A stretch of 64,000 nt of DNA from Candidatus Binataceae bacterium (GCA_030041155.1 JASHOJ010000047.1:14905-78904); one strand, 5' to 3'. Positions 8,036 to 64,000 are shown, counted from the first letter of the stretch. Made by a program: numbers and translations. Notes: a model not told the origin generated them from the sequence alone.

Positions 8036-8063
8036 TTGACTTAGATTTTAGCGGCGCTAGAGT
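8036..8063 (+). promoter_or_regulatory. sigma70-like promoter candidate for tetR/hpnH
   Basis: TTGACT (8036-8041), 16-nt spacer, TAGAGT (8058-8063). A 7-bp inverted repeat CCGTCGG/CCGACGG lies just upstream. Confidence 0.3.
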
Positions 8064-8149
8064 AATTATTGACCGAAGGGTTAGCGGCGACGGCTCCTAC
8101 CCCACGGTTAAGTTGCACTGATGCAATCTTCATCTTTCAGGACCAGGTC

Positions 8150-9844: not shown

Positions 9845-9858
9845 AGCGCCACAACGGC

Positions 9859-9889
9859 GCGCGGATTTCCCCGCGGGTGCGATCCGCGC
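9859..9889 (+). other. GC-rich stem-loop between hpnH and ispA (8-bp stem with a nested inner hairpin)
   Basis: GCGCGGAT-(ttccccgcgggtgcg)-ATCCGCGC. No U-tract follows. Confidence 0.25.
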
Positions 9890-9945
9890 CGTCGCGCCAA
9901 CTAACTGCCGATTAGTTCCGGCAGCGCCCGCCAGAGCCAGAAGAC

Positions 9946-11891: not shown

Positions 11892-11909
11892 CGGCGCGAA
11901 TTTAAGCGG

Positions 11910-13889: not shown

Positions 13890-13916
13890 AACCGCGTGCC
13901 GTAACTGGTTGCGCAG

Positions 13917-15095: not shown

Positions 15096-15112
15096 TACGA
15101 GGTCGTACTTCG

Positions 15113-16970: not shown

Positions 16971-17000
16971 TAGCATGGGTGAGCGCGAGCCGCCGGCACG

Positions 17001-19381: not shown

Positions 19382-19393
19382 CGGAAACCTTCG

Positions 19394-38281: not shown

Positions 38282-39436
38282 ATGGGTCCGCTCAAGGGAA
38301 TTACCGTCCTCGATCTCAGCATGGTGGTCGCGGGGCCGTTCTGCACCATGATCTTAGGCGATCTCGGCGCCGACGTTATCAAGATCGAACCGCCCGAGGG
38401 CGATGTCTCGCGCATCGTCGTCGGTCAGGAGCGCGGCGGCGTGCCGATTGGAATCCTCAACTGGAATCGGAGCAAGCGCGCGATGGTGCTGGATCTGAAG
38501 CGCGCCGGCGCCGCCGACGTGTTCCTCAAGATGGCGGAGCGGACCGACGTAGTGGTGCAGAATGTGCGGCCCGGCGTGGTCGACCGGCTGGGCGTCGGCT
38601 ATGCGGCAGTCTCGGCGCGAAATCCAAAAATCGTGTACTGCTCGATCGCGGGCTATGGCTTCAAGGGGCCGTATCGCGACAAGCCCGCCTACGACCCGAT
38701 AATCCAGGGACTCGCCGGCGTGATGGCGACGCAGCGCACCCAAGGCCGTCCGCGCGCGGTCAAGAACATCATCGGCGACAAGGTCACCGCGATGACCGCG
38801 GCGATCGCGATTCTGGCCGCGCTGAATAAGGCTCGGAGCGGAAAGGGCCAGCATATCGAACTCGCGATGATCGACGCGGTCGCGTACTACCTGATGGGCG
38901 ATACGATGGCGCGGCATACTTTTCTGCCGCACAAGCCCGGCGTGCCGCCCTCGATGGGCACGCTCGATCCGTTCAAGACCGCCGACGGATACATCACGAT
39001 CGCACCGCTGACCGACAAGCATTGGACCTCGATTCTCGACGCTATCGGCCATCCGGAATGGTTCCAGGGCGACGAACCTCGGCCCGAACGAGTGAAGCGA
39101 TCGATCAAGGCGCTCATCGATCTTTTTCCGACTCAGACCTCGGCGTATTGGCTGGAACGAATCGAGAAGGCCGATGTTCCCTGCGGGATGGTCAACGACT
39201 TCGATACGATTTGGAACGATCCGCAGTTCATCGAGAATGAAACCTTCGTGGAGTACGAGCATCCAGAGGCCGGGATGGTGCGGGGAGTGCGTCCGCCGGC
39301 ACGATTTTCGGAGACCAGAACCGAGTTTTGGCGTCATGCGCCGTCGCTCGGGCAGCATACGGATGAGATTCTCGCCGACTTTGGCTTCAGCGCGCCGGAA
39401 ATCAGCCGATTGCACGCCGAGCAGATCGTGAAGTGA
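38282..39436 (+). CDS. CoA-transferase family III (CaiB/BaiF) protein
   Basis: LKGITVLDLSMVVAGPFCTMILGDLGADVIKIEPP N-terminal signature. Confidence 0.8.
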   Translation: MGPLKGITVLDLSMVVAGPFCTMILGDLGADVIKIEPPEGDVSRIVVGQERGGVPIGILNWNRSKRAMVLDLKRAGAADVFLKMAERTDVVVQNVRPGVVDRLGVGYAAVSARNPKIVYCSIAGYGFKGPYRDKPAYDPIIQGLAGVMATQRTQGRPRAVKNIIGDKVTAMTAAIAILAALNKARSGKGQHIELAMIDAVAYYLMGDTMARHTFLPHKPGVPPSMGTLDPFKTADGYITIAPLTDKHWTSILDAIGHPEWFQGDEPRPERVKRSIKALIDLFPTQTSAYWLERIEKADVPCGMVNDFDTIWNDPQFIENETFVEYEHPEAGMVRGVRPPARFSETRTEFWRHAPSLGQHTDEILADFGFSAPEISRLHAEQIVK

Positions 39437-45020: not shown

Positions 45021-46976
45021 TTAGCTCAGCGTTCTGCGATCGATTCCCAGCGACGTGATGCGCGACGACAAAGTCGATGGTTTCATCCCGAGCAGTTCCG
45101 CCGCACCGCCTGGCCCGGAGACTTTTCCATTGGTACGTCTTAGAGCATCTATGACGGCCTCGCGCTCTCGATGCTTTAATTCGTTGCGCGTGGGCAGCGC
45201 ACTGTTTGCTGGCGGTTTCGCCCGGCTTCCGTTGCTTTGCGTCGGCTGTGACGGAGGGAGATCGAAGGTAAGCGGACCTTCGCGCCACAAAATGATGGCG
45301 CGTTCAACCATGTTCTGAAGCTCGCGGACGTTACCCGGCCAATGATAGGTCGCGAGCTGGTCCAGTGCTGTCTTGCTGAGTTTCGGCTCCGGGCGGTTCA
45401 TCCGCCGCGCGCTTTGTCTGACGAAATGTGCGACCAGGGGCGGTATGTCCTCGTGGCGCTCCCGCAGCGGAGGAACTTCGAGTGGGAAAACGCTCAAACG
45501 ATAGAACAGATCCTGGCGAAAGCGGCCTTCATCGACTTCCTTTTTCAGGTCTCGGTTCGATGCTGCGATTACCCGAACATTGACCTTGCGCGTCCGAGTG
45601 TCGCCGACCCGTTCAAGCTCCTGCTCCTGCAGAACGCGGAGCAGCTTGGCTTGCATCGCCAGCGGCACTTCGCCGATCTCATCAAGAAATAGCGTTCCGC
45701 CGTCGGCGAGTTCAAAACGCCCCGGTTTGTCTTTGAGCGCGCCGGTAAAGGCCCCTCTCACGTGGCCGAAGAATTCGCTTTCGAAGAGACCTTCCGGCAC
45801 CGCGCTGCAATTTAATTTGACCACGGGGCGCTCGCGACGCGCACTCTTATAGTGGATAGCTCGCGCGATGAGCTCCTTTCCGGTCCCGCTTTCTCCGGTG
45901 ATCAGGACGGTAGCATCGGTCGGCGCGACTAGTTGAACCTGCTGCATGACTTTTCGCAGGCCGGAACTCCCGCCGACTATATTGCCGAAGCTCTGCTCGG
46001 TGCGGATTTCGTCGAGCAGATACGCGTTCTGAGCTTCGAGCCGCGCCTTATCCTGCTCCAGTAGCACCCGGTCAGTGATATCGACAAGCACGACGCGCGC
46101 GTACTTACCGTCTGCCTCCCGCTTCGACCACCACTCAACCCACACCGAACGACCGTCATCCTTGCGACGCAACTCGAGACCGGACCCGGACGCCTCGGTT
46201 CTACTTTCAACCAGCTTTAAAGCTTCGCGCAGATGGTGTTGGGCTTCCGAAGTATCAGAGAACAGAGATCGCCAATGCAGCTCGGCTATCTCCTCGGGCT
46301 TGACGCCAAGAAGCCGTGCCGCGGTGCGGTTCACTTGGATAATTCCCGCGTCAGAACCGACCACATAGGCGATCGGCGCCTCTTCAAAAAAATCACGGAA
46401 TCTTTCTTCGCTCTGGGCAAGCCGCTGGTTCGCCTCACGCAGTTGCTCGCCAATTGCTCGTTCGGCGCGTTCCAGCCGCTCGACCTTCTCCGCGTAAAGT
46501 CGCAGCTCCATCTGATTCATGGCGAGTGCGGCCAACGTCCGCAACATTTCAGCCTCGCCTGATGCGAGGTCGCGCGGCTTCTGGTCAAGGACCCACACCG
46601 TTCCAAGATCCAATCCCTCGTGGGTACGTAGCGGAGCGGCCGCATAGAATCTGACGCCGAGTTCCGCGACCAGGGAGCGGTCGGCTGCTCGCTCGTCATT
46701 CGCGGCGTCGCTCAGGTGGAAAACTCCTTGCGAGAGCATCGCCGTGGCGCACAATCCTGCGTCGCGCGCCGCCTGATGAACGTCAATGCCGACCCGGGAC
46801 TTAAACCATACCCGGTCCTCGTCGACCAGACTGATGCCGGCCATAGGCACGTGAAAGAACCCGGCTGCCATCTCGGCGATGCGGTCGAAGGCCGGTTCCG
46901 GCGGCGTGTCGAGGATCTGGTAGCGCCGGAGCGCGTTCAAGCGCTCAGCTTCCTTGTCGGGGAGCACGTTCTTCAT
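45021..46976 (-). CDS. sigma54-dependent transcriptional activator with GAF and PAS sensor domains
   Basis: [15 protein letters not shown] Walker A, the GAFTGA-type region and a C-terminal Fis-type HTH. Confidence 0.85.
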
Positions 46977-51465: not shown

Positions 51466-52683
51466 ATGTTGAAGACTCCCATATACATGGACAATCAAGC
51501 CACCACGCGCTGCGATCCGCGGGTGGTCGAAGCGATGCTGCCGTATTTCTCGGAGACGTTCGGCAACGCCGCGAGCCGCAATCATAGTTTTGGATGGCAG
51601 GCGGAAGAGGCGGTCGATAAGGCGCGCAATCAGATTGCGGCCCTGATCGGCGCAAAGTCCAAGGAAATAATCTTCACCAGCGGCGCAACCGAGTCCGATA
51701 ATCTCGCGATCAAGGGAATCGTCGAGTTTTATCGCGAAAAGGGCAATCACGTAATCACCTGCGTCACCGAGCACAAGGCGGTGCTGGATAGCTGCCGCGC
51801 GCTCGAGCGCCTGGGCAAGGCGAGCGTGACCTATTTGCCGGTGGATAAGTACGGGATGGTTGATCCCGATGCGGTCCGCAACGCGATTACCGACAAGACC
51901 GTTCTCGTCACGATCATGTACGCGAACAATGAGATCGGCACGGTTCATCCGATTCGCGAGATCGGCAAAATTGCCAAGGAAAAAGGCATCATCTTTCATT
52001 GTGACGCGGTGCAGGCGGTCGGAAAAATTCCGGTTGATGTTGAGCTGGATCAAATCGACCTGCTTTCGATGAGCGGTCACAAGATTTACGGCCCTAAGGG
52101 TGTTGGGGCTTTGTACGTTCGCTCCAAGGGGCCGCGGGTTCGCCTTAGCCCGATTATCGACGGCGGAGGCCACGAGCGCGGGATGCGATCCGGTACCCTG
52201 AATGTCACCGGTATCGTGGGCTTTGGCGCGGCGTGCGAGCTCTCGGGCAAGGAGATGCCTGAAGAGGCCGCCCGGTTGAAGGAACTGCGCAGCCGGCTAC
52301 AGGCGGGAATTTTCGAGCGGCTCGACGAGGTGTACCTAAACGGTCATCCGACCGAGCGGCTGCCTGGAAACCTGAACGTCAGCTTTGCGTACGTGGAAGG
52401 CGAATCGCTGCTGATGGGGATAAGCGATGTCGCGGTGAGCTCTGGCTCCGCGTGCACCTCGGCTACGCTCGAGCCGTCGTACGTGATTCGTTCACTCGGT
52501 GTGAACGAGGAGCTGGCGCATAGCTCGATTCGATTCGGCCTTGGCCGCTTCAATACCGCGGAGGAAGTTGACTATGTATCCGACCGCGTGACCAGGGAGG
52601 TCAAGCGGCTGCGCGAAATGTCGCCGCTGTACGAGATGGCGCGAGAAGGAATCGATCTCAAATCGGTGCAGTGGAAGTCGTAA
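51466..52683 (+). CDS. iscS: cysteine desulfurase IscS
   Basis: PLP-Lys motif [10 protein letters not shown] and the catalytic SSGSACTS loop. Confidence 0.9.
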
Positions 52684-52707
52684 GCCGAACTTAGGCGCGG
52701 AGGCGCT

Positions 52708-53130
52708 ATGGCATACTCGGACAAGGTTCTTGACCATTACAATAACCCGCGCAACGTCGGCAGCTTCGCCAAGGACGATGCCAATGTCGGTACCGGCGTG
52801 GTGGGCGCTCCGGAATGCGGCGACGTGATGAAGCTGCAGCTTAAGATCACCGATGACGGGGTAATCGAGGACGCGAAGTTCAAGACTTTCGGATGCGGCA
52901 GCGCGATTGCGAGTTCCAGCTATGTCACCGAGCTGGTTAAGGGCAAGAAAATCGATGAGGCGATGGCGATCAAGAACACTCTCATCGTCAAAGAGCTGAA
53001 CCTGCCTCCGGTCAAGATTCACTGCTCGGTGCTGGCCGAAGACGCAATCAAGGCCGCGATTAGCGATTGGAAGAAGCGCAGGGGCGCCGCAAGCCCGGCG
53101 GCTCCGGCTGATAAGGCGCAACAAGGCTGA
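52708..53130 (+). CDS. iscU: Fe-S cluster assembly scaffold IscU
   Basis: GAPECGD...FGCGSAIASS...LPPVKIHCS three-Cys scaffold. GGAGG ribosome-binding site. Confidence 0.9.
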   Translation: MAYSDKVLDHYNNPRNVGSFAKDDANVGTGVVGAPECGDVMKLQLKITDDGVIEDAKFKTFGCGSAIASSSYVTELVKGKKIDEAMAIKNTLIVKELNLPPVKIHCSVLAEDAIKAAISDWKKRRGAASPAAPADKAQQG

Positions 53131-53182
53131 TCGCGCGGCGCGACTGACTTCCGTCTGGCGCGTCTTTCATCCAGCCATCACG

Positions 53183-53500
53183 ATGATTTCGCTTTCGGAA
53201 AACGCGGTTCACAAGATCAAGACGCTGGTCGCCGACAAGGGCGTCGACGCGGGACTGCGAGTGAAAGTGGTCGGCGGCGGATGCTCGGGACTGTCGTACC
53301 GGATGGAAATCGACGCGGCAAAAGAGCGGGACAAGATTTTCGAGCGCGATGGCGCTAAACTTATAGTGGACAAGAAGAGCTTCCTTTATCTTAACGGCTC
53401 CGAACTCGATTACGCGGAAGAGCTGATGTCCTCGGGCTTTCGCGTAGTTAATCCCAATGCCAAGCGAAGCTGCGGATGCGGGGAGTCGTTCGTCGTATGA
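53183..53500 (+). CDS. iscA: Fe-S cluster insertion protein IscA/HesB
   Basis: GGGCSGLSY...CGCGESF motif. Confidence 0.85.
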   Translation: MISLSENAVHKIKTLVADKGVDAGLRVKVVGGGCSGLSYRMEIDAAKERDKIFERDGAKLIVDKKSFLYLNGSELDYAEELMSSGFRVVNPNAKRSCGCGESFVV

Positions 53501-53528
53501 CGGGCGAAAAGGATGTGGCGGGTCTTTT

Positions 53529-54176
53529 ATGGTCGAATGTCCGTCATGCGGACGGCGGCAAGAGCCGCATTTAACCTGCGCGAGCTGCGCCGCGCCGCTT
53601 GGGGTTGAGCTCGACTGCTTCGAGGCGCTCAGCCTGCCCAAGCGGCTGGCAATCGAGGATGAGGCGCTGGAGCGCGTCTATCACGATCTGAGCCGCCGCA
53701 TTCATCCCGACCGCTATGCGCAGGCGCCGGCCGGCTCGCGCGATGCCAGCATGAGATCAACCGCGCTTCTGACCCGCAGCTATCGCACGCTGCGCGATCC
53801 GGTTTCGCGCGGACTCTATTGGCTGGAGCTTCGCGGTCAGAAGCTCTCCGACGACAACAAGAGCGTGCCGCCGGAAATCGCGGACATGGTGTTCGAGGTG
53901 CAGGAGCAATTAGCCGAGTCGCGCGAAGCCAAGCGCGAGCATCGAGCGGAAAGCGCCGACCTGGCCGCGGGTCTGGAAGACCGGCGCGTGGTTCTGCAGA
54001 CCGCGATGAACGGCTATCAGACCGCGCTGCGCGGAAATTTTGTGATGTGGGATATGGACCGCCAGAGCCAGCAGGAACTCATATCCGAATTAAAATTGAT
54101 CCTGTCCAATATTGCATACCTGCGCACTCTGATGCGCGATGTGGATCATGGACTGGTCGAGTTGAAGGCGGCATAA
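53529..54176 (+). CDS. hscB: Fe-S co-chaperone HscB with an N-terminal Cys4 zinc finger
   Basis: CPSCG...CASC zinc finger, then a J-domain (RIHPDRY) and a C-terminal helical bundle. Confidence 0.75.
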
Positions 54177-54178
54177 GG

Positions 54179-56059
54179 ATGCCCGCAATTCTGGGAATCG
54201 ATCTCGGAACCACCAACAGCCTGATCGCGGTGATGGACCACTCCTCGCCGCGGGTGATTGCCGACCAAGCGACTGCCAACAAAGACAGTGCGGCCACGCT
54301 GTTGCCGTCGGTGGTTGCCATCGCGCCGGATGGAAGCGTGGAGACAGGAAGGCGCGCAGTCGAGATGGAGCCTCACCTTACGGTCGAGAAAAACGGCGCG
54401 GTGAGCGCGGTTGGATTTCCAGGCGCCGAGCATGGCGCGGTGATTCGCTCGGTGAAGCGTTACATGGGGCTTGGCGGAGCGGAAATCGCGCCGGAAGACC
54501 GCGCGCGCTACACCTTCGCCGATCTTTCGGGACCGGTTGTCCGCTTTCAGGTGGGCCACCGGATCTTCACGCCGCCCCAGATTTCGGCGGAGATTCTGAA
54601 GGCGCTCAAGCATCGCGCCGAGCGCGCGCTGGGTGAGAGCGTCGACCGCGTCGTCATCACCGTACCGGCATATTTTAACGACGGTCAGCGGCAGGCGACC
54701 AAGGATGCGGGGCGGCTGGCCGGCCTTGAAGTTGTCCGGCTGGTAAATGAGCCGACCGCCGCTTCGCTCGCGTACGGGCTGGGCAAGATGGCCGAAGGCA
54801 AAGTCGCGGTTTATGATTTTGGCGGCGGCACCTTCGACATTTCGATCCTGAACATCAAGGAAGGCATCTTCGAGGTGCTTGCAACCAACGGCGACACGCA
54901 TCTGGGTGGCGACGATATCGACAATGCCGTCGTCGATTGGCTGCTGACCGGGCTTCCCGATGAATTGCGGCGCGAGCGCCGGGTATGGAATAGCGCGCGC
55001 GCGGCCGCGGAGAACGCCAAAAAAATCCTGACCGATAAGGCCGAGGCAGAAATCGCGCTGGAATTGCCCGGCGGCCGGACCATTGGAAAGACGCTTTCGC
55101 GCGCGCAACTGGAGGAGATCGCGCGTCCGTTTGTCGCGCGCACGCTTGAGCGATGCGCGATGGCGCTGGCCGACGCGAAGCTGGCCGCCGCCGATATCGA
55201 CGCGGTCGTGCTGGTTGGCGGGTCGACCCGGATGCCGATCGTCCGGAGGGACGTTGCGGCTGCGTTCGGGCGCGAACCGCTGTGCTCGATCGACCCCGAT
55301 CAGGTGGTTGCGCTTGGCGCGGCGGTCCAGGCCGGCGTTCTGATGGGCACCCAGGGGGATATGCTGCTGCTTGACGTGGTACCGCTGTCTTTGGGTATAG
55401 AGACTATGGGCGGGGTGATGGAGCGGCTGGTACATCGCAATACCACGATACCGACCAGCGTGACCGAGAAGTTCACGACGGCGGTGGACAATCAGACTCA
55501 CGTCGATATCCACGTGGTCCAGGGCGAGCGCGAGATGGCTGCCGATTGCCGCAGTCTGGCGCGCTTCAAACTCGGTCCGATTGAGCCGCAGCCGGCGGGG
55601 CTTGCGCGAGTGGCGGTGACATTTCTTATTGATGCGAATGGAATCTTGAACGTCAGCGCGCGCGACGAGCGCACCGGCCGCGAGCATTCGGTGGACGTCA
55701 AGCCGTCCTATGGCCTCAGCGAAGAGGAAATCGAGCGGATGCTCGAAGAGTCGATCGATCTGGGCGAACAGGATTTGGAGCGGCGGATGCTGATCGTGGC
55801 GCGCAACGACGCGGATCAGATTCTGGCCGCACTTCACAAACAGCTTAGCGAGTATCACAATCTGATTGACCGGAGCGAGCGTGCTCGAATTGAGGAGTTG
55901 ATGTCGCGGCTGGAGGCCGCGCGCGTCGGCGAGGATCGGCAGCTAATCGCGGGGCTGGTCGAGGAATTGAACGACCAGAGCACTCCATTCGCCGAACGGA
56001 TTATGGACGCCGCGATCAAGCACGCGCTGGAAAAGAAATCGGTCGAGCAGGTTTCATAG
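54179..56059 (+). CDS. hscA: Fe-S chaperone HscA (Hsp70 family)
   Basis: [19 protein letters not shown] and [10 protein letters not shown] Hsp70 signatures. Start is 2 nt after the hscB stop. Confidence 0.85.
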
Positions 56060-56092
56060 CACGCGGACAGAACAGGAGAACGCAACAGTATC

Positions 56093-56311
56093 ATGGGTCT
56101 CAAGTGGGAGCAGGCCGAAGAACTGGCGGAAGTTCTGGCCGAAAATCATCCAGGCCTCAATCCGCTCGATGTGCGTTTTACGGATCTTCGCCAGTGGGTG
56201 GTTGACCTGGACGAATTCGGCGATGATCCAAAGGCATCCAATGAAGCCAAGCTGGAGGCAATCCAGATGGCTTGGAACGAAATTTACAAGGAACAGAGCG
56301 AAGAAGATTGA
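56093..56311 (+). CDS. iscX: Fe-S assembly protein IscX (YfhJ)
   Basis: MGLKWEQAEE...NPLDVRFTDLRQWVVDLDEFGDDP, an acidic 72-aa protein. Confidence 0.75.
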   Translation: MGLKWEQAEELAEVLAENHPGLNPLDVRFTDLRQWVVDLDEFGDDPKASNEAKLEAIQMAWNEIYKEQSEED

Positions 56312-56313
56312 AT

Positions 56314-56343
56314 AGACGCCCGGGGACAGGCGTCTTTAATTTA
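56314..56343 (+). terminator. intrinsic terminator of the isc operon
   Basis: AGACGCC-cggggaca-GGCGTCT followed by TTTAATTTAA. Confidence 0.55.
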
Positions 56344-56362
56344 AGCGAGGAGGTGGCGTGCG

Positions 56363-57001
56363 GTGGAAGCAGCTAGCGGGAGCTTGAGGGCGGCCGAGGG
56401 ACAAAAAATGCAGGAAAAGGAAACCCTGGACGAGAAGTTGCCGGGTCTTTTCGAGCCCGACACTCTGTTGCCGATCCAGTATTTCGAGGCGATGCGCAAA
56501 AAGCATCTGCTCGAAGGCGAAAAACGGCTCATTCTTAGCGTTCTCGAAGATGCGGTCGAATGCTTCATGAAGTGCATCGACGCCGGCACCAATAAGGGGC
56601 AGCGGCTGTTTCGCGATGCCGACGAATGGATCAATCACGAAGACAAGAAATGGGTCTTCTCATTCGACAATGTCTGCGACATGCTCGACATCAATCCCGA
56701 TTACATGCGGGTGGGCTTGCGCCGGTGGAAGGAAAAAAAGCTTGACCTGATTGCGCGGCGCCGCGCCGAGATCGAAGCTGAAGCCGCGTTCGCGCTGGCA
56801 AATCCGCAGGCCGCCGCCGCTATTGCCGCGGTGGCTATACATCCGGCTGCCGTGGCTCCTGCGAGCCCCAGCCGGATAGCGGCCAAGCCGATGCCGCCGG
56901 TTCGTCATAAGCCGGTGCATCAGGTAGCCGCGGTTCACGCCAAGGCGCACTCAAAGTCGCATGGCAAAACCCATGCGGCGCTGCACAAGGCGCACGGCTG
57001 A
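56363..57001 (+). CDS. hypothetical protein with an Ala/His/Lys-rich C-terminal tail
   Basis: GAGGAGG six nt upstream of the GTG start. An alternative ATG lies at 56408. No recognisable domain. Confidence 0.4.
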   Translation: MEAASGSLRAAEGQKMQEKETLDEKLPGLFEPDTLLPIQYFEAMRKKHLLEGEKRLILSVLEDAVECFMKCIDAGTNKGQRLFRDADEWINHEDKKWVFSFDNVCDMLDINPDYMRVGLRRWKEKKLDLIARRRAEIEAEAAFALANPQAAAAIAAVAIHPAAVAPASPSRIAAKPMPPVRHKPVHQVAAVHAKAHSKSHGKTHAALHKAHG

Positions 57002-57053
57002 GAACACTCGCGCATCGACTATCGACGCCACGACATTAATCGTCTTTAACACG

Positions 57054-57078
57054 GAGGCGGTCGGCTTTCGGCCGCCTC
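57054..57078. terminator. stem-loop between convergent genes
   Basis: GAGGCGG-tcggctttcgg-CCGCCTC. Confidence 0.25.
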
Positions 57079-57127
57079 TGCTCGTCCGATCGGGGACCGC
57101 GCGATTGCCGGCTCTTCTTCTGTCCAG

Positions 57128-58141
57128 CTACAGCGCGCGCCACGCGTCGCCGAGCCGCTCGATAGCACGCAGCACGCGTTTGCGCCGCTCCTCCGGCTCG
57201 CGAGCAAAGCACGAGAACTGGATCGCGCTGGCGGTTATTCCGGCGCGCTCATAGTCCTTGAGCCGCTTCGCGCACGCCTCCGGCGTGCCGAAGACAAAAA
57301 TCTTTTCGACCATCCCGTCGGGAATTGATTCGAGCGCTCTTTTGCGGTCGCCCGCCGCCCATGCATCGAAGGCGATGGAGGCTTCGTTTTCGTAGCCGAT
57401 TTCTTTGAAGAACTTGTTGTATTGCGGCACGGTGACGTAAGCGGTGAGAGAGCGCCGGAACATCGCGCGGACGGTCGCGTCGTCTTCATCGACCGCGCAG
57501 ATGATCCTGCACGCAACGTCAAGTTTGGACGGGTCTTTACCGCGCGCGCGCATCGCCGCGCGAGTTTCATCGAGCATCGGCGGAAGCGTCTCCGGAGTGA
57601 TGAAGTTGACGATCACGCCGTCGCCGATTTCGCCCGCGGTCCGCAGCATGAGCGATCCCTGCGCTCCAATGTAAATCGGCGGAGGGTTTTCGGTCGGAAT
57701 ATCAAGGCGGAAGCCGTTCATCCTGATCATCTTCCCGGACATCGTGACCTTCTCACCGCGAAAAATAGCGCGCAGCGCCTCCACCGTCTCGCGAATCATC
57801 GTGACCGGCTTGCGAAACGGCACGTCCATCCATTGCTGAACGATGTTGGGCGTGGAGATGCCAAGGCCGAGCACGAAGCGCCCGCCGGTTAGCTGCTGCA
57901 CCGTCATCGCGGACATCGCGATCAGCGCCGGGGGCCGCGTAAACACGGGCACGATCGCGGATCCGAAGTGCATCTTCGGCGAAAGCATCGCGGCCGCCGT
58001 TATCGGCGAGAACGCGTCGGTCGAGAACGATTCATACGACCACGCCTCGGTATAACCGCATCTGTCGGCCGCGCGCACCAGCTCGGGGAAATGCGAATTT
58101 GAAAACGGGTCGAAAGGGATCGTAATTCCAAGTTTCATCAT
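57128..58141 (-). CDS. LLM-class flavin/F420-dependent oxidoreductase
   Basis: Luciferase-like TIM-barrel N-terminus MKLGITIPF...YTEAWSYESFSTDAFSP. Confidence 0.7.
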   Translation of the reverse strand: MMKLGITIPFDPFSNSHFPELVRAADRCGYTEAWSYESFSTDAFSPITAAAMLSPKMHFGSAIVPVFTRPPALIAMSAMTVQQLTGGRFVLGLGISTPNIVQQWMDVPFRKPVTMIRETVEALRAIFRGEKVTMSGKMIRMNGFRLDIPTENPPPIYIGAQGSLMLRTAGEIGDGVIVNFITPETLPPMLDETRAAMRARGKDPSKLDVACRIICAVDEDDATVRAMFRRSLTAYVTVPQYNKFFKEIGYENEASIAFDAWAAGDRKRALESIPDGMVEKIFVFGTPEACAKRLKDYERAGITASAIQFSCFAREPEERRKRVLRAIERLGDAWRAL

Positions 58142-58205
58142 GACGGGTATTGCTCCACCGCGACGAATCTAGCGCAGGGTGATGCCGATCTGAAACCGCC
58201 GATAG

Positions 58206-61109
58206 CTAGCGTGGAGTTGCGAGCGCGGAGTCCAGAACCTGCGCGAGATGCAGCGGCTCTACGCCGGGGCACAGATGGCGAATCTGCGTCCGGCAGGAAA
58301 ATCCGTCGGCAATAACCGTTGTGTTTGTGCCGGCGGCGCGGATTGCCGGACCGAGGACGCGCTCACCCGCGGCGATCGATACCGCGTAGTGATCGGCGCT
58401 GTAGCCGAACCCGCCTGCCATCCCGCAGCATCCGGCGTCGAGCACGTCCAGCTTGAGACCGCGGCATCGCGCAAGAATGGCGGTCTCGGTCTCAATTCCG
58501 GCGATAGACTTCTGATGGCAATGTCCGTGCAGGATCGCTCTGCCCGCGATCGCCGGCGGATCGAACGACGATGCTTCACGGGCAAGAAATTCATCGAGCA
58601 GCATTGCGCGCGCTCCCAGAGCGGTCGCGCGATGATCGCGAGGGAAGAGCGCCGGCAGCTCATCGCGGAACGTGAGGATACAGCTCGGTTCAAGCCCGAT
58701 AATTGGAATGCCGGCATCAGCTTCCTGCGCAAGCGCGTCCATCGCGGAGGACAGAAGATGCCTTGCGCGATCGAGCATCCCCTGATCGTAGAGCGGCCGT
58801 CCGCAGCAAAGATCGCGCGCGGGTATCGTGACGCGAAAGCCGGCGCGTTCGAGCACGCGGGTTGCGGCGATCGCGACTTCCGGTTCGAAGTGATTGGTGA
58901 AAGTGTCCGGAAACAGGATGACTCGCCGTGCGTCCGACGGCGGATTTTTGCGCGTGTTGCGTGCGAACCACGATCGGAAGGTCTCAGGCGCGAAGCGCGG
59001 CAGAGCGCGAGCGGCGGCGAAGCCGAGCGCGAGCCGCGCCAGAGCACCGGCGGCGGGAGTGTGCGTGATGGCGTTGGCGATACGCGGGGCGAAAGCGGCG
59101 GCGCGCGCGATCTCGTGCAGCCGCCCAAAGAACAGCGCCGCGGGCGGGCGGCGATGCTCCTGATAGTAGTGGGAGAAGAACTCAGCCCGATACGCCGCCA
59201 TATCCACCGAGGACGGACATTCCTTTTTGCATCCCTTGCACGCGAGGCAGAGGTCGAGCGCTTCCTTCACGGCGTCATCGGTGAATCCACGCGGCAGCAA
59301 ATCGGTCGTGAGCCCATCGAACAGGATACGGGCTCGGCCGCGGGTTGAGTGCTTTTCATCGCGGGTCGCCATGTAGGACGGGCACATCACGCCAGCATCG
59401 GTTTTTCGGCACTTCCCGATTCCGACGCACTTGAGCGCCGCGCCCGCAAGGCCGCCTTCATCGCTAAAATCGAAATGAGTGGAAATCTCGCGCGGCCTGC
59501 GAGTCCCGGCAAACGCGGCGGCAATCTTCAGATGCGAATCGATCGGATGCGGATTCACCAGCACGCCGGGATTCATGCGTGAATCGGGATCGAACGCGCG
59601 TTTGAAATCCGCGAAGGCGTCGATAATTTTGCGCGGATAGATGACGGGCAGGAGCTCCGATCTGGCGATTCCGTCGCCATGCTCGCCGGAAATCGAGCCG
59701 CCGAACTCCGCGACAATATCGCCGAGCTCTCGCATCGCGGATCGAAACGTCGCGATTCCTCTTTCAGTCGTGAAATCGAAGCTGATGCGCGCGTGAACGC
59801 ATCCCTCGCCAAAGTGGCCGTAGTAGGTCGCGACGGTGAGCGCATGACGCTGGACCATCGCATCGAAGCGGCGCAGATAATCACCAAGGCGCGCGGGCGG
59901 CACGGCCGCATCCTCGGCGCCGGGCCAGGTGCGGGGCCGTCCGGCAATATAGGCGCTGGAGCCGAGACCTGACTCGCGAATTTTCCACACCGCGTCCTGC
60001 TCGCGCTCATCGGTCAGGAGCGCCGCGCCGGTGCATCGGGGAAGCCTTCGCGCCTCGGCGAGCATCTGCTCGGCGCGCGCCCGCGCCTCAGCGGGATTCG
60101 ACCCGCCCAGCTCCGTGACCAGGAATGCACTCCCGGCAGGCAGGAAGCGGACGCCGGGCATCTTTTTCTCGCGCGCGATATCCGGCAGCTTGTGATCGAA
60201 GCCTTCGAGCGCCTCGGGCCGATGCGCCAGCATCCAGGGCATCTGATCGCCCGCGACGAACACATCGTCAAATCCGAGGACAATCACGGCGACACTTTTC
60301 GGGCGCGGCACGACTCGCAAGCTCGCCTTAAGCGTAATTCCGAGCGTGCCCTCAGACCCGACCATCGCGCGCGCCAGATTGAAGCCGCGTTCGGGCAGCA
60401 GATCGTCGAGATTGTAACCCGAGACGCGGCGCGGGATGTGGGGAAAATGATCGCGAACCTCGTCCCCGACTCGGTCGCGCAAGGCGAGCAGCGCCGCGGC
60501 CAGCTCGCCCTCGCGCTCGGAGCGCTTGCGCGCCGCGGTGACGATTGATTTATCGGGGAGATTCGCATTCGCGCCGAGCGAGAGCGTGGTGCCGTCGTAG
60601 AGCATCGCTTCGAGCGACTGGAGATTATCGGCGGTCTTGCCGTATGCCGCGGAATGAGCGCCGCAGGAGTTGTTGCCGATCATCCCGCCGATTGTGCATC
60701 GATCCTTGGTCGACGGGTCGGGCGCGAAAAAGAGGCCGTGCGGCCAGAGCGCCGAGTTGAGATCGCTCTGAACGACACCCGGCTCGACGACGGCGGTGTG
60801 CGACGCGGGATCGATCGCGAGCACTCGATTCATGTATTTGGAAAAATCGAGCACCAGCGCGGTGTTGGTGCATTGCCCGCCAAGGCTGGTGCCGCCGCCG
60901 CGCGCGAGAATCGGGATTGCGTTTTCGCGCGCGAGCGAAAGCGCGGCCTCGATGTCACCCCGATTGCGAGGAGCGACTATTCCGATCGGGACCTGGCGGT
61001 AATTGGACGCGTCCGTCGAGTAGACTGAGAGACTGCCGATATCGAAGCGGACATCGCCTTCGATAATTGACGCAAGCTTGCGTTCCAGCGCTTTGGTCGC
61101 GGGCGTCAT
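58206..61109 (-). CDS. fused FAD-linked oxidase / Fe-S (CCG-domain) oxidoreductase (GlcD-GlcF/Dld-like)
   Basis: N-terminal PCMH FAD domain, central CxxCxxCxxxCP ferredoxin motifs and C-terminal CCG repeats (CCGRPL, CCGMAGG). Confidence 0.75.
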   Translation of the reverse strand: MTPATKALERKLASIIEGDVRFDIGSLSVYSTDASNYRQVPIGIVAPRNRGDIEAALSLARENAIPILARGGGTSLGGQCTNTALVLDFSKYMNRVLAIDPASHTAVVEPGVVQSDLNSALWPHGLFFAPDPSTKDRCTIGGMIGNNSCGAHSAAYGKTADNLQSLEAMLYDGTTLSLGANANLPDKSIVTAARKRSEREGELAAALLALRDRVGDEVRDHFPHIPRRVSGYNLDDLLPERGFNLARAMVGSEGTLGITLKASLRVVPRPKSVAVIVLGFDDVFVAGDQMPWMLAHRPEALEGFDHKLPDIAREKKMPGVRFLPAGSAFLVTELGGSNPAEARARAEQMLAEARRLPRCTGAALLTDEREQDAVWKIRESGLGSSAYIAGRPRTWPGAEDAAVPPARLGDYLRRFDAMVQRHALTVATYYGHFGEGCVHARISFDFTTERGIATFRSAMRELGDIVAEFGGSISGEHGDGIARSELLPVIYPRKIIDAFADFKRAFDPDSRMNPGVLVNPHPIDSHLKIAAAFAGTRRPREISTHFDFSDEGGLAGAALKCVGIGKCRKTDAGVMCPSYMATRDEKHSTRGRARILFDGLTTDLLPRGFTDDAVKEALDLCLACKGCKKECPSSVDMAAYRAEFFSHYYQEHRRPPAALFFGRLHEIARAAAFAPRIANAITHTPAAGALARLALGFAAARALPRFAPETFRSWFARNTRKNPPSDARRVILFPDTFTNHFEPEVAIAATRVLERAGFRVTIPARDLCCGRPLYDQGMLDRARHLLSSAMDALAQEADAGIPIIGLEPSCILTFRDELPALFPRDHRATALGARAMLLDEFLAREASSFDPPAIAGRAILHGHCHQKSIAGIETETAILARCRGLKLDVLDAGCCGMAGGFGYSADHYAVSIAAGERVLGPAIRAAGTNTTVIADGFSCRTQIRHLCPGVEPLHLAQVLDSALATPR

Positions 61110-61222
61110 CGGCGGAGAACGAGTCTATCGCGATAACGATCCGAAGCGGATATCGCGCGTAAGGCCAGTTCGCGGTCTTTCTAACCGCGGTAACGCGCGG
61201 AAAATGAGCGAGGCAATCGGCG

Positions 61223-62476
61223 CTAGAGGTCGATGTCCTTCATGCCCTCGCGCGGCGCACCGACGATCGCGACCATGTTGCCCTCGGGCGCCTCGTTGTC
61301 GTGCATCAGGCCGTGGGTGTGGCCGATATCGTCGAATTTATAGGTGCCAGCCAGGCATGGATCGATTTTTCCGTCGATAACTAACTGGTTGAATGCATAC
61401 GACTGCTCGTCGTTGGCAAAATGCGATCCCTGCAACCGCTTTTGCCGCATCCAGAGATAGCGCAAATCCACGACCGCATTGTAACCAGTGGTGCCCGCGC
61501 AGATGACGACCATCCCGCCGGTATCGCACACGAAAATCGAGGTTGGAGTCGTGTCTTCGCCGGGATGCTCGAAAACGATGCTCGGGCTTTTGCGCTCGCC
61601 GACGATGTCCCAAATCGCCTTGCCGAAAGCGCGGCATTCGGCGGCCCACTTGTTGTATTTCGCCGTGTCGGTCCAGTGCGGCATCATCCCCCAGTGAGAA
61701 AAATTCTTGCGATTGATGCATCCCCTGGCGCCGAGCCTAATGCAGAATGCGGCTTTTTTTTCGCTGCTGACGACCGCTACCGGAATGCCACCGGCAGCTT
61801 TTACGATCTGGATAGCCATGCATCCGAGTCCGCCCGCCGCGCCCCAAATGAGAACGACCTCGCCCTCGCGCACGACGTTCGGCGGCCAGCCCATCAGCAT
61901 TCGATAGGTGGTTGCGCCGACCAGCGTTGGAGCTGCCGCTTCTTCCCATGTGAGATGCTTCGCCTTCGGCATGCACTGATGCGCCTGTACGCGGGTGAAC
62001 TGGGCGAAGCTTCCCCAATTGGTTTCGTAGCCCCAGATTTTGAAAGTGGGATCGTACATCGGATCGGTGCCGTTGCGGACCGCGGGGCAATCGCGATCCC
62101 ATACACCGCAGTGAATTACCACTCGGTCGCCGACCTTAAGGTTGCTTACCTCGGGACCGACCGCGTACACGATTCCCGACGCGTCGCTGCCGCCGATATG
62201 AAAATCGGTCGGGTCGTATCCGGATTTATTGCGCGCCGCGATAACGTCGATAGGCAGGCCGAGCGCCGCAAAGACGTTGTTGCGATTTATTCCCGCGGCC
62301 ATCACGTACACGAGCACCTCGCCCGGCCGCAACTCGGGAATCGCGATTTTTTCGGTTTTGAATGCCTTGCGCGGATGTCCGAAGCGGTCGGCCCGGATCA
62401 CCTGCGCGTACATGAGTTTCGGAATCTGCCCGAGCGGGGGCACCTCGCCTAATTCGAAGATTTCTCTCTTGCTCAT
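61223..62476 (-). CDS. ccr: crotonyl-CoA carboxylase/reductase
   Basis: Ccr-specific N-terminus [24 protein letters not shown] and MDR enoyl-reductase fold. Start taken at the internal ATG matching the family N-terminus. Confidence 0.75.
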
Positions 62477-62790
62477 CGCGAATTTACTGCCTGCGTGTCG
62501 GCTCCTTGGTTTCCTGAGTCCAACCCCAGTCAATAAAACATCAGAATATGGGGGGCGAAGAGATTACGTATATGTTTGCCACGCATGTGACAACACCAGC
62601 GATCGGCAAGCCCTACTGCCGATATCTGAAGCCGCGAAGATGCCTCAGGTTGACGCGTAGTGTGTAATTCCATAAAAAAAGCGCAAACCGGCGCCTCCGG
62701 ATGCATCGCTATCCGCAAACCGGAACGATTCTTGCCGCCACGGTGCGATAATCCGAGTCTATACACAGGAGAGCCTCAACCCAAGGTAAA

Positions 62791-63264
62791 ATGCCGTCGC
62801 GCAAAATCGAGCGTGGCCACTACTTCGAGGATTTCGAGGTCGGCCACCTTTACAAGCATCATTGGGGCAGGACTATCACGGAGGGCGACAATTCGTTCTT
62901 CACCTCGGTCACGATGAACGCGAATCCCATTTACTTTAATCGGGAATACGCACAGTCGTTAGGCTACAAGGGCGTGGTGGTGAATCATCTGCTGGTGATG
63001 AACGTGGTGTTCGGGCTTTCGGTCGAGGATCTCAGCGAGCGCGCGATCGCGCATCTCGGCTACGAGGGCATGAAGTACCTGGCGACGGTGTATCCGGGCG
63101 ACACGCTCACCTCCGAGTCGCTGGTCGTCTCCAAGCGTGACAGCTCGCGGCCGGATCGCGGAATCGTCAAATTTCGCACCACCGGATACAATCAGCGCGG
63201 CGAGAAGGTGCTTGAATACGAGCGTCCGGTCCTGATTCGCAAGCGCAACGTGAAGTCGGAGTAG
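62791..63264 (+). CDS. MaoC-family (R)-specific enoyl-CoA hydratase/dehydratase
   Basis: Single hot-dog fold, 157 aa. Confidence 0.65.
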   Translation: MPSRKIERGHYFEDFEVGHLYKHHWGRTITEGDNSFFTSVTMNANPIYFNREYAQSLGYKGVVVNHLLVMNVVFGLSVEDLSERAIAHLGYEGMKYLATVYPGDTLTSESLVVSKRDSSRPDRGIVKFRTTGYNQRGEKVLEYERPVLIRKRNVKSE

Positions 63265-63272
63265 AGCATCAG

Positions 63273-64000
63273 ATGGCTCTGGTAACGCCCGAGCATGAAG
63301 AGATTCGCCGTTCGGTCCGCGAATTCGTGGAGGCCGAGGTCAAACCGATCGCCAATGACCTCGATCGGCAGAACAAGGAAATTCCCGAGCGTATTCTGAG
63401 CAAGATGGCCGAGCTCGGCTATTTCGGCGTGATTTTTCCCGCCGATGACGGCGGGCTTGGCCTCGATTACATCTCGATGGCGATCGTCACCGAAGAGCTG
63501 TCGCGCGGATGGCTCTCGGTCGGCTCGGTGATGACGCGCAACGTCATCACCGGCACGCTTATCAGCGCCAACGGCACGCCGGAGCAGAAGAAGCGATACT
63601 TGCCAAAGATCGCGCGCGGCGAAATTCTCACCGCCGCGGCATTTACCGAGCCTGACTCCGGCAGCGACACCGCGTCATTCAAGACTCGAGCGGTAAAGCA
63701 GGGCGACGGCTATCTGATAAAAGGATCGAAGATGTGGTGCACGTTCGCGAACCGCGCGAACATGCTGACCGTGATGACCCGGACCGACCCCGACCCGTCG
63801 AAGCGCCACAAGGGTCTGTCGCTGATTCTGTTCGAGAAAGAGCCGGGTGATAATTTCGCGCCGCCGCATCTGACCGGCTCGCCGATCCCGACCATCGGCT
63901 ATCACGGGATGCGCAGCTACGCGCTTCAATTCGAGGACGCATACGCGCCGGCCGCGAATCTTATCGGCGGTCAGGAAGGCCGCGGCTTTTATCAGTTGAT
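63273..64000 (+). CDS. acyl-CoA dehydrogenase (5' partial; runs off the window end)
   Basis: ACAD N-terminal and middle domains: AELGYFGVIFP, TEPDSGSD and GSKMWCT. Confidence 0.8.
   Translation, partial: MALVTPEHEEIRRSVREFVEAEVKPIANDLDRQNKEIPERILSKMAELGYFGVIFPADDGGLGLDYISMAIVTEELSRGWLSVGSVMTRNVITGTLISANGTPEQKKRYLPKIARGEILTAAAFTEPDSGSDTASFKTRAVKQGDGYLIKGSKMWCTFANRANMLTVMTRTDPDPSKRHKGLSLILFEKEPGDNFAPPHLTGSPIPTIGYHGMRSYALQFEDAYAPAANLIGGQEGRGFYQL

Follow-up and report, generated by a model that had tools for sequence, protein, structure and literature searches.

The 64,000-nucleotide stretch of DNA analyzed here (the window) ends in a probable ethylmalonyl-CoA (EMC) pathway gene cluster, for the assimilation of acetate and C1 compounds, from an uncultured soil member of the Candidatus Binataceae. 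The cluster is of a type already known, but two of its enzymes are of unusual build: mesaconyl-CoA hydratase (Mch) is split between two genes, and methylsuccinyl-CoA dehydrogenase (Mcd) is short. It is likely, in our judgment, that this locus represents the core of the EMC pathway of this bacterium and that the genes for a FAD/Fe-S fusion protein and an LLM-class oxidoreductase, which follow ccr on the same strand, are separate from it. Members of the Binataceae abound in soil and peat but have not been cultured; methylotrophy and alkane degradation have been predicted for them, and they are proposed to regenerate glyoxylate through the EMC pathway.

In the proposed scheme, Ccr would convert crotonyl-CoA, CO2, and NADPH to (2S)-ethylmalonyl-CoA, and the mutase and epimerase steps that follow would be encoded by ecm and epi elsewhere in the genome. 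Across a shared control region of 314 bp with two conserved, back-to-back promoter-like blocks, a putative operon of four genes, in the order mchN, mcd, mchC, and lyase, would supply a two-subunit mesaconyl-CoA hydratase, a short Mcd, and a divergent malyl-/beta-methylmalyl-CoA-lyase-like enzyme, which together are predicted to carry methylsuccinyl-CoA through mesaconyl-CoA and beta-methylmalyl-CoA to glyoxylate and propionyl-CoA. In the window this operon is cut off halfway through its second gene, and its remainder is described here from related loci, which are designated by L numbers.

Gene content and the carboxylase type of Ccr

All five reading frames were found in the window by a combined ORF and profile check (see the table), and the named homologues come from Candidatus Binataceae or Binatus. 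On the minus strand, ccr is followed by the FAD/Fe-S and LLM genes with gaps of 113 and 64 bp, respectively, and MaoC and acyl-CoA dehydrogenase (ACAD) genes make up the diverging pair on the plus strand. The initial annotation had named these genes correctly, as judged by Pfam and NCBIfam profiles; its statement that the minus-strand genes are co-transcribed is an inference rather than an observation.

Table. Features of the ccr locus, with positions counted from the first nucleotide of the window
Feature	Position	Strand	Description
LLM-class (F420-type) oxidoreductase	57128-58141	-	337 aa; Bac_luciferase, TIGR03841
FAD/Fe-S D-2-hydroxyacid-dehydrogenase-type fusion	58206-61109	-	967 aa; GlcD-like FAD part and GlpC/GlcF-like part with 2x[4Fe-4S] and 2xCCG
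TAGACT, -10-like box	61122-61127	-	precedes the FAD/Fe-S start codon by 12 nt
ccr, crotonyl-CoA carboxylase/reductase	61223-62476	-	417 aa from ATG; TIGR01751 equivalog
Spacer block 2, facing ccr	62560-62595	-	TTGTCA (-35-like)-N17-TAnnTAAT; nine-locus alignment; contains the TTGCCAC/GTGACAA repeat
Spacer block 1, facing the MaoC operon	62649-62678	+	GTTGAC(G)-N17-TAAAAA within ATTCCATAAAAA; nine-locus alignment
mchN (MaoC1), putative N-half of split mesaconyl-CoA (beta-methylmalyl-CoA) hydratase	62791-63264	+	157 aa; PF19315 MC_hydratase
Short-form methylsuccinyl-CoA-dehydrogenase-like ACAD	63273-64000, cut by window end	+	first 242 aa in window; orthologues 388 aa

The ccr reading frame extends to a TTG at 62533 in the ORF listing, and homology starts at the ATG. 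In a profile search, the product scored 556.2 bits against TIGR01751 (cutoff 378.55), and both parts of the MDR fold are matched (PF08240, ADH_N, and PF00107, ADH_zinc_N). Its best solved relatives are 9kva, AntE (4y0k, the second-best), and the Ccr structure 4gi2 (455 bits), and Ccr identity across 80 loci is 61-84%. The CO2 pocket of the Ccr of K. setae (KsCcr) is formed by four residues, Asn81, Phe170, Glu171, and His365, of which Phe170 can be replaced by Tyr with carboxylation kept (PMC6628652). The corresponding residues of the present protein (N64/N66 in the motif NRNN, Y150, E151, and H352), mapped to KsCcr by motif and via AntE rather than by direct alignment with the K. setae enzyme, are all present; by pairwise alignment they are the same as those in AntE, a validated carboxylase, and they are invariant or nearly so across 81 homologues. 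Judged by these residues, Ccr is of the true carboxylase type. A plain enoyl reductase in this position, which the initial annotation had named as fatal to its proposal, is not what the gene encodes, because the protein passes TIGR01751 and carries the CO2-pocket residues.

The putative divergent operon and its proposed control region

The first plus-strand product, MaoC1, is, on the evidence of its alignments, the N-terminal half of mesaconyl-CoA hydratase. MaoC1 covers positions 18-168 of the 353 positions of PF19315 (MC_hydratase), and MaoC2, the product of mchC in the relatives, covers positions 225-352; together they account for both halves of the double hot-dog MaoC architecture of Mch. 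The best PDB matches of MaoC1 are 4e3e, residues 2-152 (E 1e-37), and 8hgn, a "beta-methylmalyl-CoA dehydratase," residues 3-151, and each MaoC half aligns with the corresponding half of the fused Mch from canonical EMC clusters. The enzyme is not encoded as a single polypeptide of ~350 residues; in all of the Binataceae loci, genes for proteins of 157 and ~160 residues are separated by the ACAD gene. The operon of the relatives goes on, after the C-terminal half of the hydratase, with a malyl-CoA-lyase-like gene, and its genes are spaced by 9-40 bp in all loci.

The ACAD appears, from its sequence, to be closest to methylsuccinyl-CoA dehydrogenase. The best match of the L001 orthologue is (2S)-methylsuccinyl-CoA dehydrogenase of Paracoccus denitrificans (PdMCD; 6es9, 376 bits, core residues 171-550), and the ACAD is 48-49% identical to the long, full-signature Mcd proteins of canonical ecm-mch-mcd-ccr clusters. 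Of ten PdMCD signature residues, eight are kept (Ser248, Arg252, Ala285, Phe287, Thr418, Arg421, Phe534, and Glu535), and the fragment in the window shows the Ser, the Arg, and the segments AAAFTEP and GYHGMRSY. In PdMCD, Arg252, Arg376, and Arg421 bind the carboxylate, Ala285 and Phe287 form the alpha-methyl pocket, Glu535 is catalytic, and Arg252 is essential (PMC5798300). The match to PdMCD spans the whole catalytic core. The ACAD departs from PdMCD in having His for Arg376 and Ser for Glu380, an Arg being present one turn away at the position of Lys379, and in lacking the dimer-mimicking N-terminal extension of ~170 residues, which makes the enzyme a dimer. The start codon lies 9 nt after the mchN stop, which leaves no place for such an extension, and the 388-residue orthologues align to residues 171-550 of PdMCD only. 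In the absence of the dimer-mimicking part, a canonical tetramer would be expected. It should be noted that every characterized Mcd has the N-terminal extension and that the residue replaced by His is one of the three pocket arginines. The ccr-ACAD-MaoC module of Chloroflexota was considered as an analogue and set aside; the ACADs encoded beside ccr there are not of the Mcd type, and they keep only Arg421 and the catalytic Glu of the Mcd signature.

The lyase gene lies outside the window and was analyzed in L001, where its product matches HpcH_HpaI with 95 bits. Its best PDB matches are malyl-CoA/beta-methylmalyl-CoA lyases (5ugr, 4l9y, and 4l7z), which are weak at 91-103 bits, and its identity with lyases from canonical clusters is only ~27-30%. 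All of its NCBIfam scores are below cutoff (citE, 128 of 443 bits; RipC, 100 of 375; haloarchaeal Mcl, 90 of 500), and CitE chains of the Rv2498c type are matched at 28-32 bits as against ~100 for Mcl. The match to Mcl, at ~100 bits, is itself weak and similar to the scores obtained with the CitE and RipC models.

The MaoC-ACAD pair does not stand apart from the EMC pathway: it consists of putative EMC enzymes, the Mch N-half and an Mcd homologue, to which the relatives add the Mch C-half and the lyase-like gene. Thus ccr is accompanied by EMC genes after all, and ecm and epi alone would lie elsewhere. The initial annotation was probably right that the locus handles C5-dicarboxylate CoA esters. 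The search that it recommended for ecm, mcd, mch, and mcl is answered in part, with mcd and mch homologues beside ccr and a lyase-like gene in the relatives; ecm is absent from the window. None of ecm, epi, and meaB was found in the 64-kb window, where three Ecm-type mutases of canonical clusters, used as tblastn queries, also gave no match, or within 10 kb in L001, L082, and L083. A genome survey of the Binatales found all of the EMC genes, including ecm and ccr, and is reported to place ecm elsewhere in these genomes (PMC8262859, Text S1).

Two other assignments of the divergent operon have to be weighed. The operon might serve the catabolism of methylsuccinate, mesaconate, or itaconate through C4-CoA esters, with a methylsuccinyl-C4-CoA dehydrogenase, an itaconyl-/mesaconyl-C4-CoA hydratase, and an (S)-citramalyl-CoA lyase yielding acetyl-CoA and pyruvate, and ccr would then be a mere neighbor. 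The lack of ecm nearby is compatible with this, as is the short ACAD, since the C4-type dehydrogenases of itaconate clusters are ordinary ACAD-family proteins (PMC12290011); the lyase matches RipC/Ccl and CitE, and the MaoC halves match RipB/Ich (133 and 110 bits). However, all of the Rip matches fall far below their cutoffs, and the match to RipB/Ich does not discriminate, because a genuine fused Mch from a canonical EMC cluster gives the same subthreshold match (119 bits); it was accordingly dismissed as evidence for itaconate metabolism. The halves are moreover collinear with Mch, with a beta-methylmalyl-CoA dehydratase as top PDB match, the ACAD keeps Arg252 and Arg421 and the alpha-methyl pocket of PdMCD, the best solved relatives of the lyase are Mcl rather than CitE, RipC, or CLYBL, there is no CoA-transferase or MmgE/PrpD gene in the cluster, and the Binataceae retain the divergent arrangement with ccr. 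A C4-ester pathway is on balance quite unlikely. It is very improbable that ccr supplies alkylmalonyl-CoA extender units for polyketides, as its relationship to AntE might suggest, or that the operon belongs to a leucine/HMG-CoA-type route like that of Rv2498c-Rv2500c of M. tuberculosis, whose gene order, citE-Rv2499c-fadE19, resembles lyase-MaoC-ACAD. Both readings were dismissed: the window and the related loci contain no PKS or carboxylase genes, the similarity of the lyase to Rv2498c-type CitE is far below that to Mcl, and the ACAD carries the arginines expected for a dicarboxyl-CoA.

The spacer between ccr and MaoC1 (62477-62790) measures 314 bp and has a GC content of 0.51-0.54, compared with 0.61 for the window, in keeping with the AT-richer divergent region of about 315 bp described initially. 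The imperfect inverted repeat reported within it is also present, TTGCCAC at 62576-62582 and GTGACAA at 62587-62593 matching at 6 of 7 positions. By a rough estimate, chance alone would give ~4 such imperfect inverted repeats of 7 nt in a spacer of this length (314 bp); a repeat finder did not report this one and returned three different palindromes from the spacer, all short, imperfect, and not conserved. The sequence is of interest because it falls within the best conserved block of nine aligned Binataceae spacers (block 2), and not for the repeat as such. The invariant stretches of block 2 are TTGTC and CAAA, and TTGnC-N9-GnCAA forms its conserved core; the block is a candidate promoter and/or operator of ccr. 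Block 1, in which GTTGAC and ATTCCAT.A.A are invariant in the nine loci, is a candidate promoter of the mchN-mcd-mchC-lyase operon. A scan with consensus promoter and terminator models gave site counts no higher than those of shuffled sequence and zero sites within the intergenic gaps; block 1 escapes a simple promoter scanner because its -10 element has no T at position 6. An Rfam search of positions 56000-64000 at a permissive threshold found nothing, and the spacer is therefore taken to contain no riboswitch or known sRNA.

The FAD/Fe-S and LLM genes beside ccr

The 967-residue protein matches FAD_binding_4, FAD-oxidase_C, Fer4_17/Fer4_8, and CCG in Pfam and contains a CxxCxxCxxxCP sequence and two CCG motifs. 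Among named families it comes closest to YdiJ (NF049975), with 509 bits where the cutoff is 1350; the other equivalogs are also below cutoff (GlcD, 219 of 568; GlcF, 54 of 333; GlpC, NF008369, 197 of 278 over the C-terminal half). Its solved relatives, which span the FAD domain only, are glycolate oxidase, LctD, D-LDH, and D-2HGDH. The single-chain layout of ~950-1020 residues, with a GlcD-like FAD domain, two [4Fe-4S] motifs, and two CCG domains, is that of Escherichia coli YdiJ, a D-2-hydroxyglutarate dehydrogenase (PMC9504171), but the score far below the YdiJ cutoff indicates that the protein is not a YdiJ orthologue and has the architecture alone in common with it. The protein is more aptly called a dehydrogenase than an oxidase, the term used in the initial annotation, and would be a respiratory-chain-linked D-2-hydroxyacid dehydrogenase of YdiJ/Dld-II architecture. 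The FAD/Fe-S D-lactate dehydrogenases of the Dld-II type have the same single-chain architecture, also of ~950-1020 residues.

The LLM protein passes TIGR03841 (Rv3093c subfamily; 253.8 bits, cutoff 213.65) and would be an F420- or flavin-dependent oxidoreductase. No F420 genes (cofG/H or fbiC, cofD, and cofE) were detected among the 45 ORFs of the window scanned with Pfam, and a literature search found no link between Binatia and F420. Orthologues of the FAD/Fe-S protein, with 63-73% identity, occur only on Binataceae-type contigs, as do all of the LLM orthologues. The LLM gene follows the FAD/Fe-S gene by 11-90 bp in most loci and adjoins the isc operon, which occupies 51.4-56 kb of the window; the same seven genes and the isc operon recur in L001, L082, L083, and L084.

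It has been proposed that ccr and these two genes form one functional operon in which 2-hydroxyacid processing is tied to a variant EMC route, for example through oxidation of glycolate to glyoxylate that feeds the lyase or through oxidation of D-malate, methylmalate, or citramalate species. The three genes have the same strand and order in 13 of the 14 informative Binataceae loci, the gap between ccr and the FAD/Fe-S gene is 45-113 bp in six loci, glyoxylate is a predicted product of the divergent genes, and glycolate and other D-2-hydroxyacids are substrates of GlcD-type enzymes. Because the gaps in the window are short and neither contains a terminator-like site, read-through, and with it some functional coupling, is possible. 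However, the linkage is absent from all of the ~70 ccr loci of other lineages, including other Binatia, and even in the Binataceae the ccr-FAD/Fe-S junction is interrupted in L004 and L007 by an opposite-strand MAPEG gene and in L084 by four genes spanning 2.8 kb, some of the intervening genes being on the opposite strand; in L086, the LLM gene lies beside isc without the FAD/Fe-S gene or ccr. A conserved -10-like box also precedes the FAD/Fe-S gene itself: direct inspection of 12 Binataceae loci found a TAnAnT box 8-17 nt before the start codon in 11 (TACAAT in seven, TACGAT in L084, and either TAGACT or TAAACT in L001, L002, and the window), and the box is kept even where the gap from ccr is only 45-64 bp. 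In the window, the TAGACT box may mark a separate promoter of the FAD/Fe-S gene. None of the GlcD, GlcF, and YdiJ cutoffs is reached, and since the whole block, including isc, is syntenic, adjacency within it carries little functional information.

A single operon is consequently unlikely: a functional link of ccr to the FAD/Fe-S and LLM genes is unsupported, and nothing in the data speaks for the connection to glyoxylate or 2-hydroxyacids. Most likely, the FAD/Fe-S and LLM genes are units of their own that happen to lie between ccr and isc; they appear to stay beside ccr through family-level synteny and not through a common function, and the 967-residue FAD/Fe-S gene is probably unrelated to ccr. 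There is a slim chance that the Binataceae have recruited the dehydrogenase, with or without the LLM protein, to the EMC/serine-cycle node as part of one regulon with ccr, in a family-specific version of the pathway with split Mch and extension-less Mcd. If so, it might oxidize glycolate or a C4/C5 D-2-hydroxy-dicarboxylate, feeding or draining the glyoxylate pool and passing electrons to quinone.

Comparison with known clusters

Identification of the locus as the EMC core, with its carboxylase-type Ccr, putative two-subunit Mch, extension-less Mcd homologue, and two conserved promoter-like boxes, should aid the annotation of Binataceae genomes and the reading of metatranscriptomes, and it carries the caution that function read from adjacency may mislead within a family-level synteny block. 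Because the synthetic CETCH cycle of CO2 fixation includes both Mcd and Ccr, an Mcd that is short by nature and an Mch in two parts could also be of interest to enzyme engineers.

The itaconate-methylsuccinate cluster of Pseudomonad and Cupriavidus species (PMC12290011) resembles the Binataceae operon in that a methylsuccinyl-CoA-oxidizing ACAD is encoded together with a hydratase and a HpcH/CitE-family lyase for C5-dicarboxylate CoA esters. That cluster uses C4-CoA esters, however, and includes a CoA-transferase and a MmgE/PrpD isomerase, both missing here, whereas the Binataceae ACAD has largely retained the pocket of Mcd, which is specific for C1 esters.

The same chemistry, from methylsuccinyl-CoA to glyoxylate and propionyl-CoA, is predicted as in the proteobacterial EMC clusters (among the loci compared, L052-L055 and L063, with the order mcd-mch-ecm-meaB-ccr), which have Ccr of the same clade and homologues of Mcd, Mch, and the HpcH-family lyase beside ccr. 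The EMC pathway was defined in Rhodobacter and Methylorubrum. In the Binataceae, Mch is encoded by two genes for proteins of ~160 residues that flank mcd, in contrast with the single gene for ~350-390 residues in the proteobacterial clusters; Mcd has 388 residues, without the extension of ~170 residues and with His at the Arg376 position; and the cluster is without ecm and meaB.

Gene string and carboxylase at the end of the window

The positions and family identities of five ORFs at the end of the window (see table) agree with the gene string described in the initial annotation. In the family scan, Ccr scores above the crotonyl-CoA carboxylase/reductase equivalog cutoff (556 versus 378.55), and LLM, a luciferase-like oxidoreductase, above that of the F420-class family TIGR03841 (253.8 versus 213.65). 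The FAD/Fe-S protein comprises FAD_binding_4 and FAD-oxidase_C domains, two [4Fe-4S] motifs, and CCG domains, and its nearest named family, YdiJ, scores 509 bits (cutoff 1350). The ccr ORF is listed as far as a TTG at 62533, and all homology begins at the ATG. Gaps of 113 and 64 bp separate the minus-strand genes, with no terminator-like site in either; co-transcription of these genes is a conjecture.

The solved proteins closest to Ccr are 9kva, AntE, and Ccr 4gi2. The CO2 pocket of Kitasatospora setae Ccr is defined by Asn81, Phe170, Glu171, and His365 (PMC6628652), for which motif correspondence gives N64/N66, Y150, E151, and H352 in the window Ccr. By pairwise alignment AntE is identical at these positions, where 81 homologues show little or no variation, and carboxylation is kept with Tyr at the Phe position (PMC6628652). 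The pocket residues are therefore present, and the alternative of a plain enoyl reductase, allowed for at the outset, does not apply.

Features of the window and their coordinates
Feature	Position	Strand	Content or evidence
Luciferase-like oxidoreductase, second	5405-6376	+	323 aa
Hopanoid/squalene biosynthesis cluster	8840-20290	+	ORF family annotations: HpnH-like radical SAM protein (DUF3463), polyprenyl synthase, ADH, squalene-hopene cyclase (11910-13889), DXP reductoisomerase, two SQS_PSY (HpnC/D-like), amine-oxidase (HpnE-like), NAD epimerase, carotenoid-synthesis protein
GlcD-type FAD-linked oxidase, second	29750-31357	+	unfused, 535 aa
Family III CoA-transferase	38282-39436	+	384 aa, 23 kb from cluster
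Sigma-54-dependent activator	45021-46976	-	GAF + PAS sensor domains, 651 aa, about 14 kb from cluster
isc Fe-S assembly operon	51466-56059 (about 51.4-56 kb)	+	IscS, IscU, IscA, HscB-like, HscA, IscX-like
ORF between isc and LLM	56363-57001	+	212 aa, Ala/Pro/His-rich C-terminal tail
LLM	57128-58141	-	337 aa; ORF map, translation
FAD/Fe-S	58206-61109	-	967 aa; ORF map, translation
TAnAnT box	61122-61127		TAGACT
ccr	61223-62476 from ATG	-	medium-chain-reductase protein; ORF map, translation
Spacer	62477-62790		314 bp, GC 0.51-0.54 versus 0.61 overall
Block 2	62560-62595	ccr direction	TTGTCA-N17-TAnnTAAT
Block 1	62649-62678	+	GTTGACG-N17-TAAAAA, toward MaoC operon
MaoC	62791-63264	+	157 aa; ORF map, translation
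ACAD	from 63273, cut off at window end	+	ORF map, translation

The divergent arm

The whole arrangement is seen in L001, a relative of 72% identity whose contig measures 1.88 Mb, where MaoC(157)-ACAD(388)-MaoC(161)-HpcH(345) diverge from ccr-FAD/Fe-S-LLM. The window MaoC corresponds to the N-terminal half of the mesaconyl-CoA hydratase (Mch) profile (positions 18-168 of 353) and aligns with the N-halves of PDB 4e3e and 8hgn ("beta-methylmalyl-CoA dehydratase"), the second MaoC corresponds to the C-terminal half (positions 225-352), and each aligns to the matching half of the fused, ~390-aa Mch from canonical clusters. The two genes thus appear to encode a split Mch, with the ACAD gene between them. 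The best solved relative of the ACAD is the methylsuccinyl-CoA dehydrogenase (Mcd) of Paracoccus denitrificans (376 bits, core residues 171-550), in which Arg252 is essential and Ala285 and Phe287 form the alpha-methyl pocket (residue roles from PMC5798300). Ser248, Arg252, Ala285, Phe287, Thr418, Arg421, Phe534, and Glu535 are kept, and the 242-aa fragment in the window has the matching S, R, AAAFTEP, and GYHGMRSY; Arg376 is changed to His and Glu380 to Ser, with Arg at the 379 position, and the ~170-residue N-terminal extension is missing. In a comparison of all ccr-adjacent ACADs of the fetched loci, the Binataceae ACAD is nearest to long Mcd proteins, which have the full signature, share 48-49% identity with it, and come from clusters of canonical type; L052, for instance, has an ecm-like gene (693 aa), a fused Mch (361 aa), an Mcd (565 aa), and a pair of HpcH genes, followed by ccr. 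The signature is absent from the short ACADs adjoining ccr in Chloroflexota. The lyase gene, outside the window, matches malyl-/beta-methylmalyl-CoA lyases best, weakly (about 100 bits) and below every NCBIfam cutoff. Taken together, the arm probably encodes the lower branch of the ethylmalonyl-CoA (EMC) pathway, its substrates being assigned by homology.

An itaconate/methylsuccinate route through C4 esters is an improbable alternative reading of the arm. The pseudomonad cluster for this route has the same three enzyme types as the Binataceae arm, namely ACAD, hydratase, and CitE-type lyase (PMC12290011), and the MaoC halves match RipB/Ich below threshold, but this match does not discriminate because the canonical fused Mch yields an equal one (119 bits). 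The Mcd-type methyl pocket of the ACAD, the collinearity of the MaoC halves with Mch, the absence of CoA-transferase and MmgE/PrpD genes from the cluster, and the conserved pairing with ccr all favor the EMC assignment.

A distinct conserved module, ccr-ACAD(~390 aa)-single MaoC(~160 aa), occurs in Chloroflexota loci of Tepidiformaceae and others (L025, L026, L028, L031, L037, L042, and L049; about 11300-13000). Its ACAD has G-T-L-I-K-E-T-V-R-A-E in place of the Mcd arginine and methyl-pocket signature and may act on a monocarboxylic short-chain acyl-CoA, feeding or draining crotonyl-CoA. In L004, a Binataceae locus, a further LLM is inserted between mchN, the gene for the N-half of Mch, and ccr.

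The spacer and the FAD/Fe-S and LLM genes

Alignment of nine orthologous spacers between ccr and MaoC reveals two conserved blocks amid otherwise divergent sequence, which are putative back-to-back promoters, possibly with an operator. The imperfect inverted repeat singled out in the initial annotation is present within block 2, but only TTGnC-N9-GnCAA is conserved, the CAC/GTG part is peculiar to the window, and chance alone predicts about four 6-of-7 repeats per 314 bp. An Rfam search of the spacer found no known RNA element.

Scanning the genome collection with Ccr gave 80 loci, which were examined by tblastn and ORF clustering with four further contexts added. The order ccr-FAD/Fe-S-LLM is kept in 13 of the 14 informative Binataceae loci, and neither partner gene lies near ccr in about 70 loci of other lineages (other Binatia, Chloroflexota, Proteobacteria, Leptospira, and Dormibacterota); named homologues of both come from Candidatus Binataceae or Binatus. 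Each junction is breakable within Binataceae: between ccr and FAD/Fe-S the distance varies from 45 bp to 2.8 kb, with four genes inside it in L084 and a MAPEG gene on the opposite strand in L004 and L007; in these last two loci the divergent operon is also cut off from ccr by other genes, an NHEJ-ligase gene among them; and the LLM of L086 adjoins isc but has neither FAD/Fe-S nor ccr nor mch/mcd in its vicinity. Furthermore, isc lies directly past LLM in every Binataceae locus, including the window, L001, and L082-L086, so the whole region is syntenic and adjacency alone is weakly informative. In two MFD assemblies from long reads (L007, 11865-15766; L008, 11283-13829), frameshifts break FAD/Fe-S and LLM into several pieces, through either homopolymer sequencing errors or real pseudogenization; if real, they would further indicate that the pair can be dispensed with.

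Of 12 loci, 11 have a TAnAnT box (TACAAT in seven) 8-17 nt 5' of the FAD/Fe-S start codon, and it is kept even where the ccr gap is 45-64 bp, which suggests that FAD/Fe-S has its own promoter and a very short leader. With 11-90 bp between them, FAD/Fe-S and LLM may belong together as a pair. The former probably encodes a quinone-linked D-2-hydroxyacid dehydrogenase. We conclude that the two genes are conserved neighbors of ccr; their coupling to the EMC pathway, as initially proposed, is possible but unlikely and gains no support from a linkage that is confined to Binataceae, has breakable junctions, and lies in a syntenic region. The ORF between isc and LLM has no Pfam match, and similar ORFs recur at the corresponding site of five loci (cluster c17).

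Relation to known pathways

The rest of the window carries unrelated metabolism genes and a family III CoA-transferase, the enzyme type for mesaconyl-CoA C1-C4, itaconate, or succinyl-CoA transfers. It contains no acyl-CoA mutase, and tblastn of the window with three Ecm-type mutases from canonical clusters gave no match. In L016, from another, non-Binataceae Binatia, a PduO-type cobalamin adenosyltransferase gene (8062-8691, +) precedes ccr by about 1.3 kb, an interval occupied by two small unannotated ORFs, and its presence would fit an Ecm step that depends on B12; unannotated homologues (cluster c39) occur near ccr in L024 and L080.

Murphy et al. (PMC8262859, Text S1) reported the complete set of EMC genes, ccr and ecm among them, from Binatales genomes, and the pathway is therefore not new in this lineage. 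We found no description of the cluster architecture, of a split Mch with mcd between its halves, of an Mcd with His for Arg376 and no N-terminal extension, or of the conserved spacer boxes. With substrates, promoters, and transcription units inferred from sequence, these features appear to be modest variations on known enzymes.
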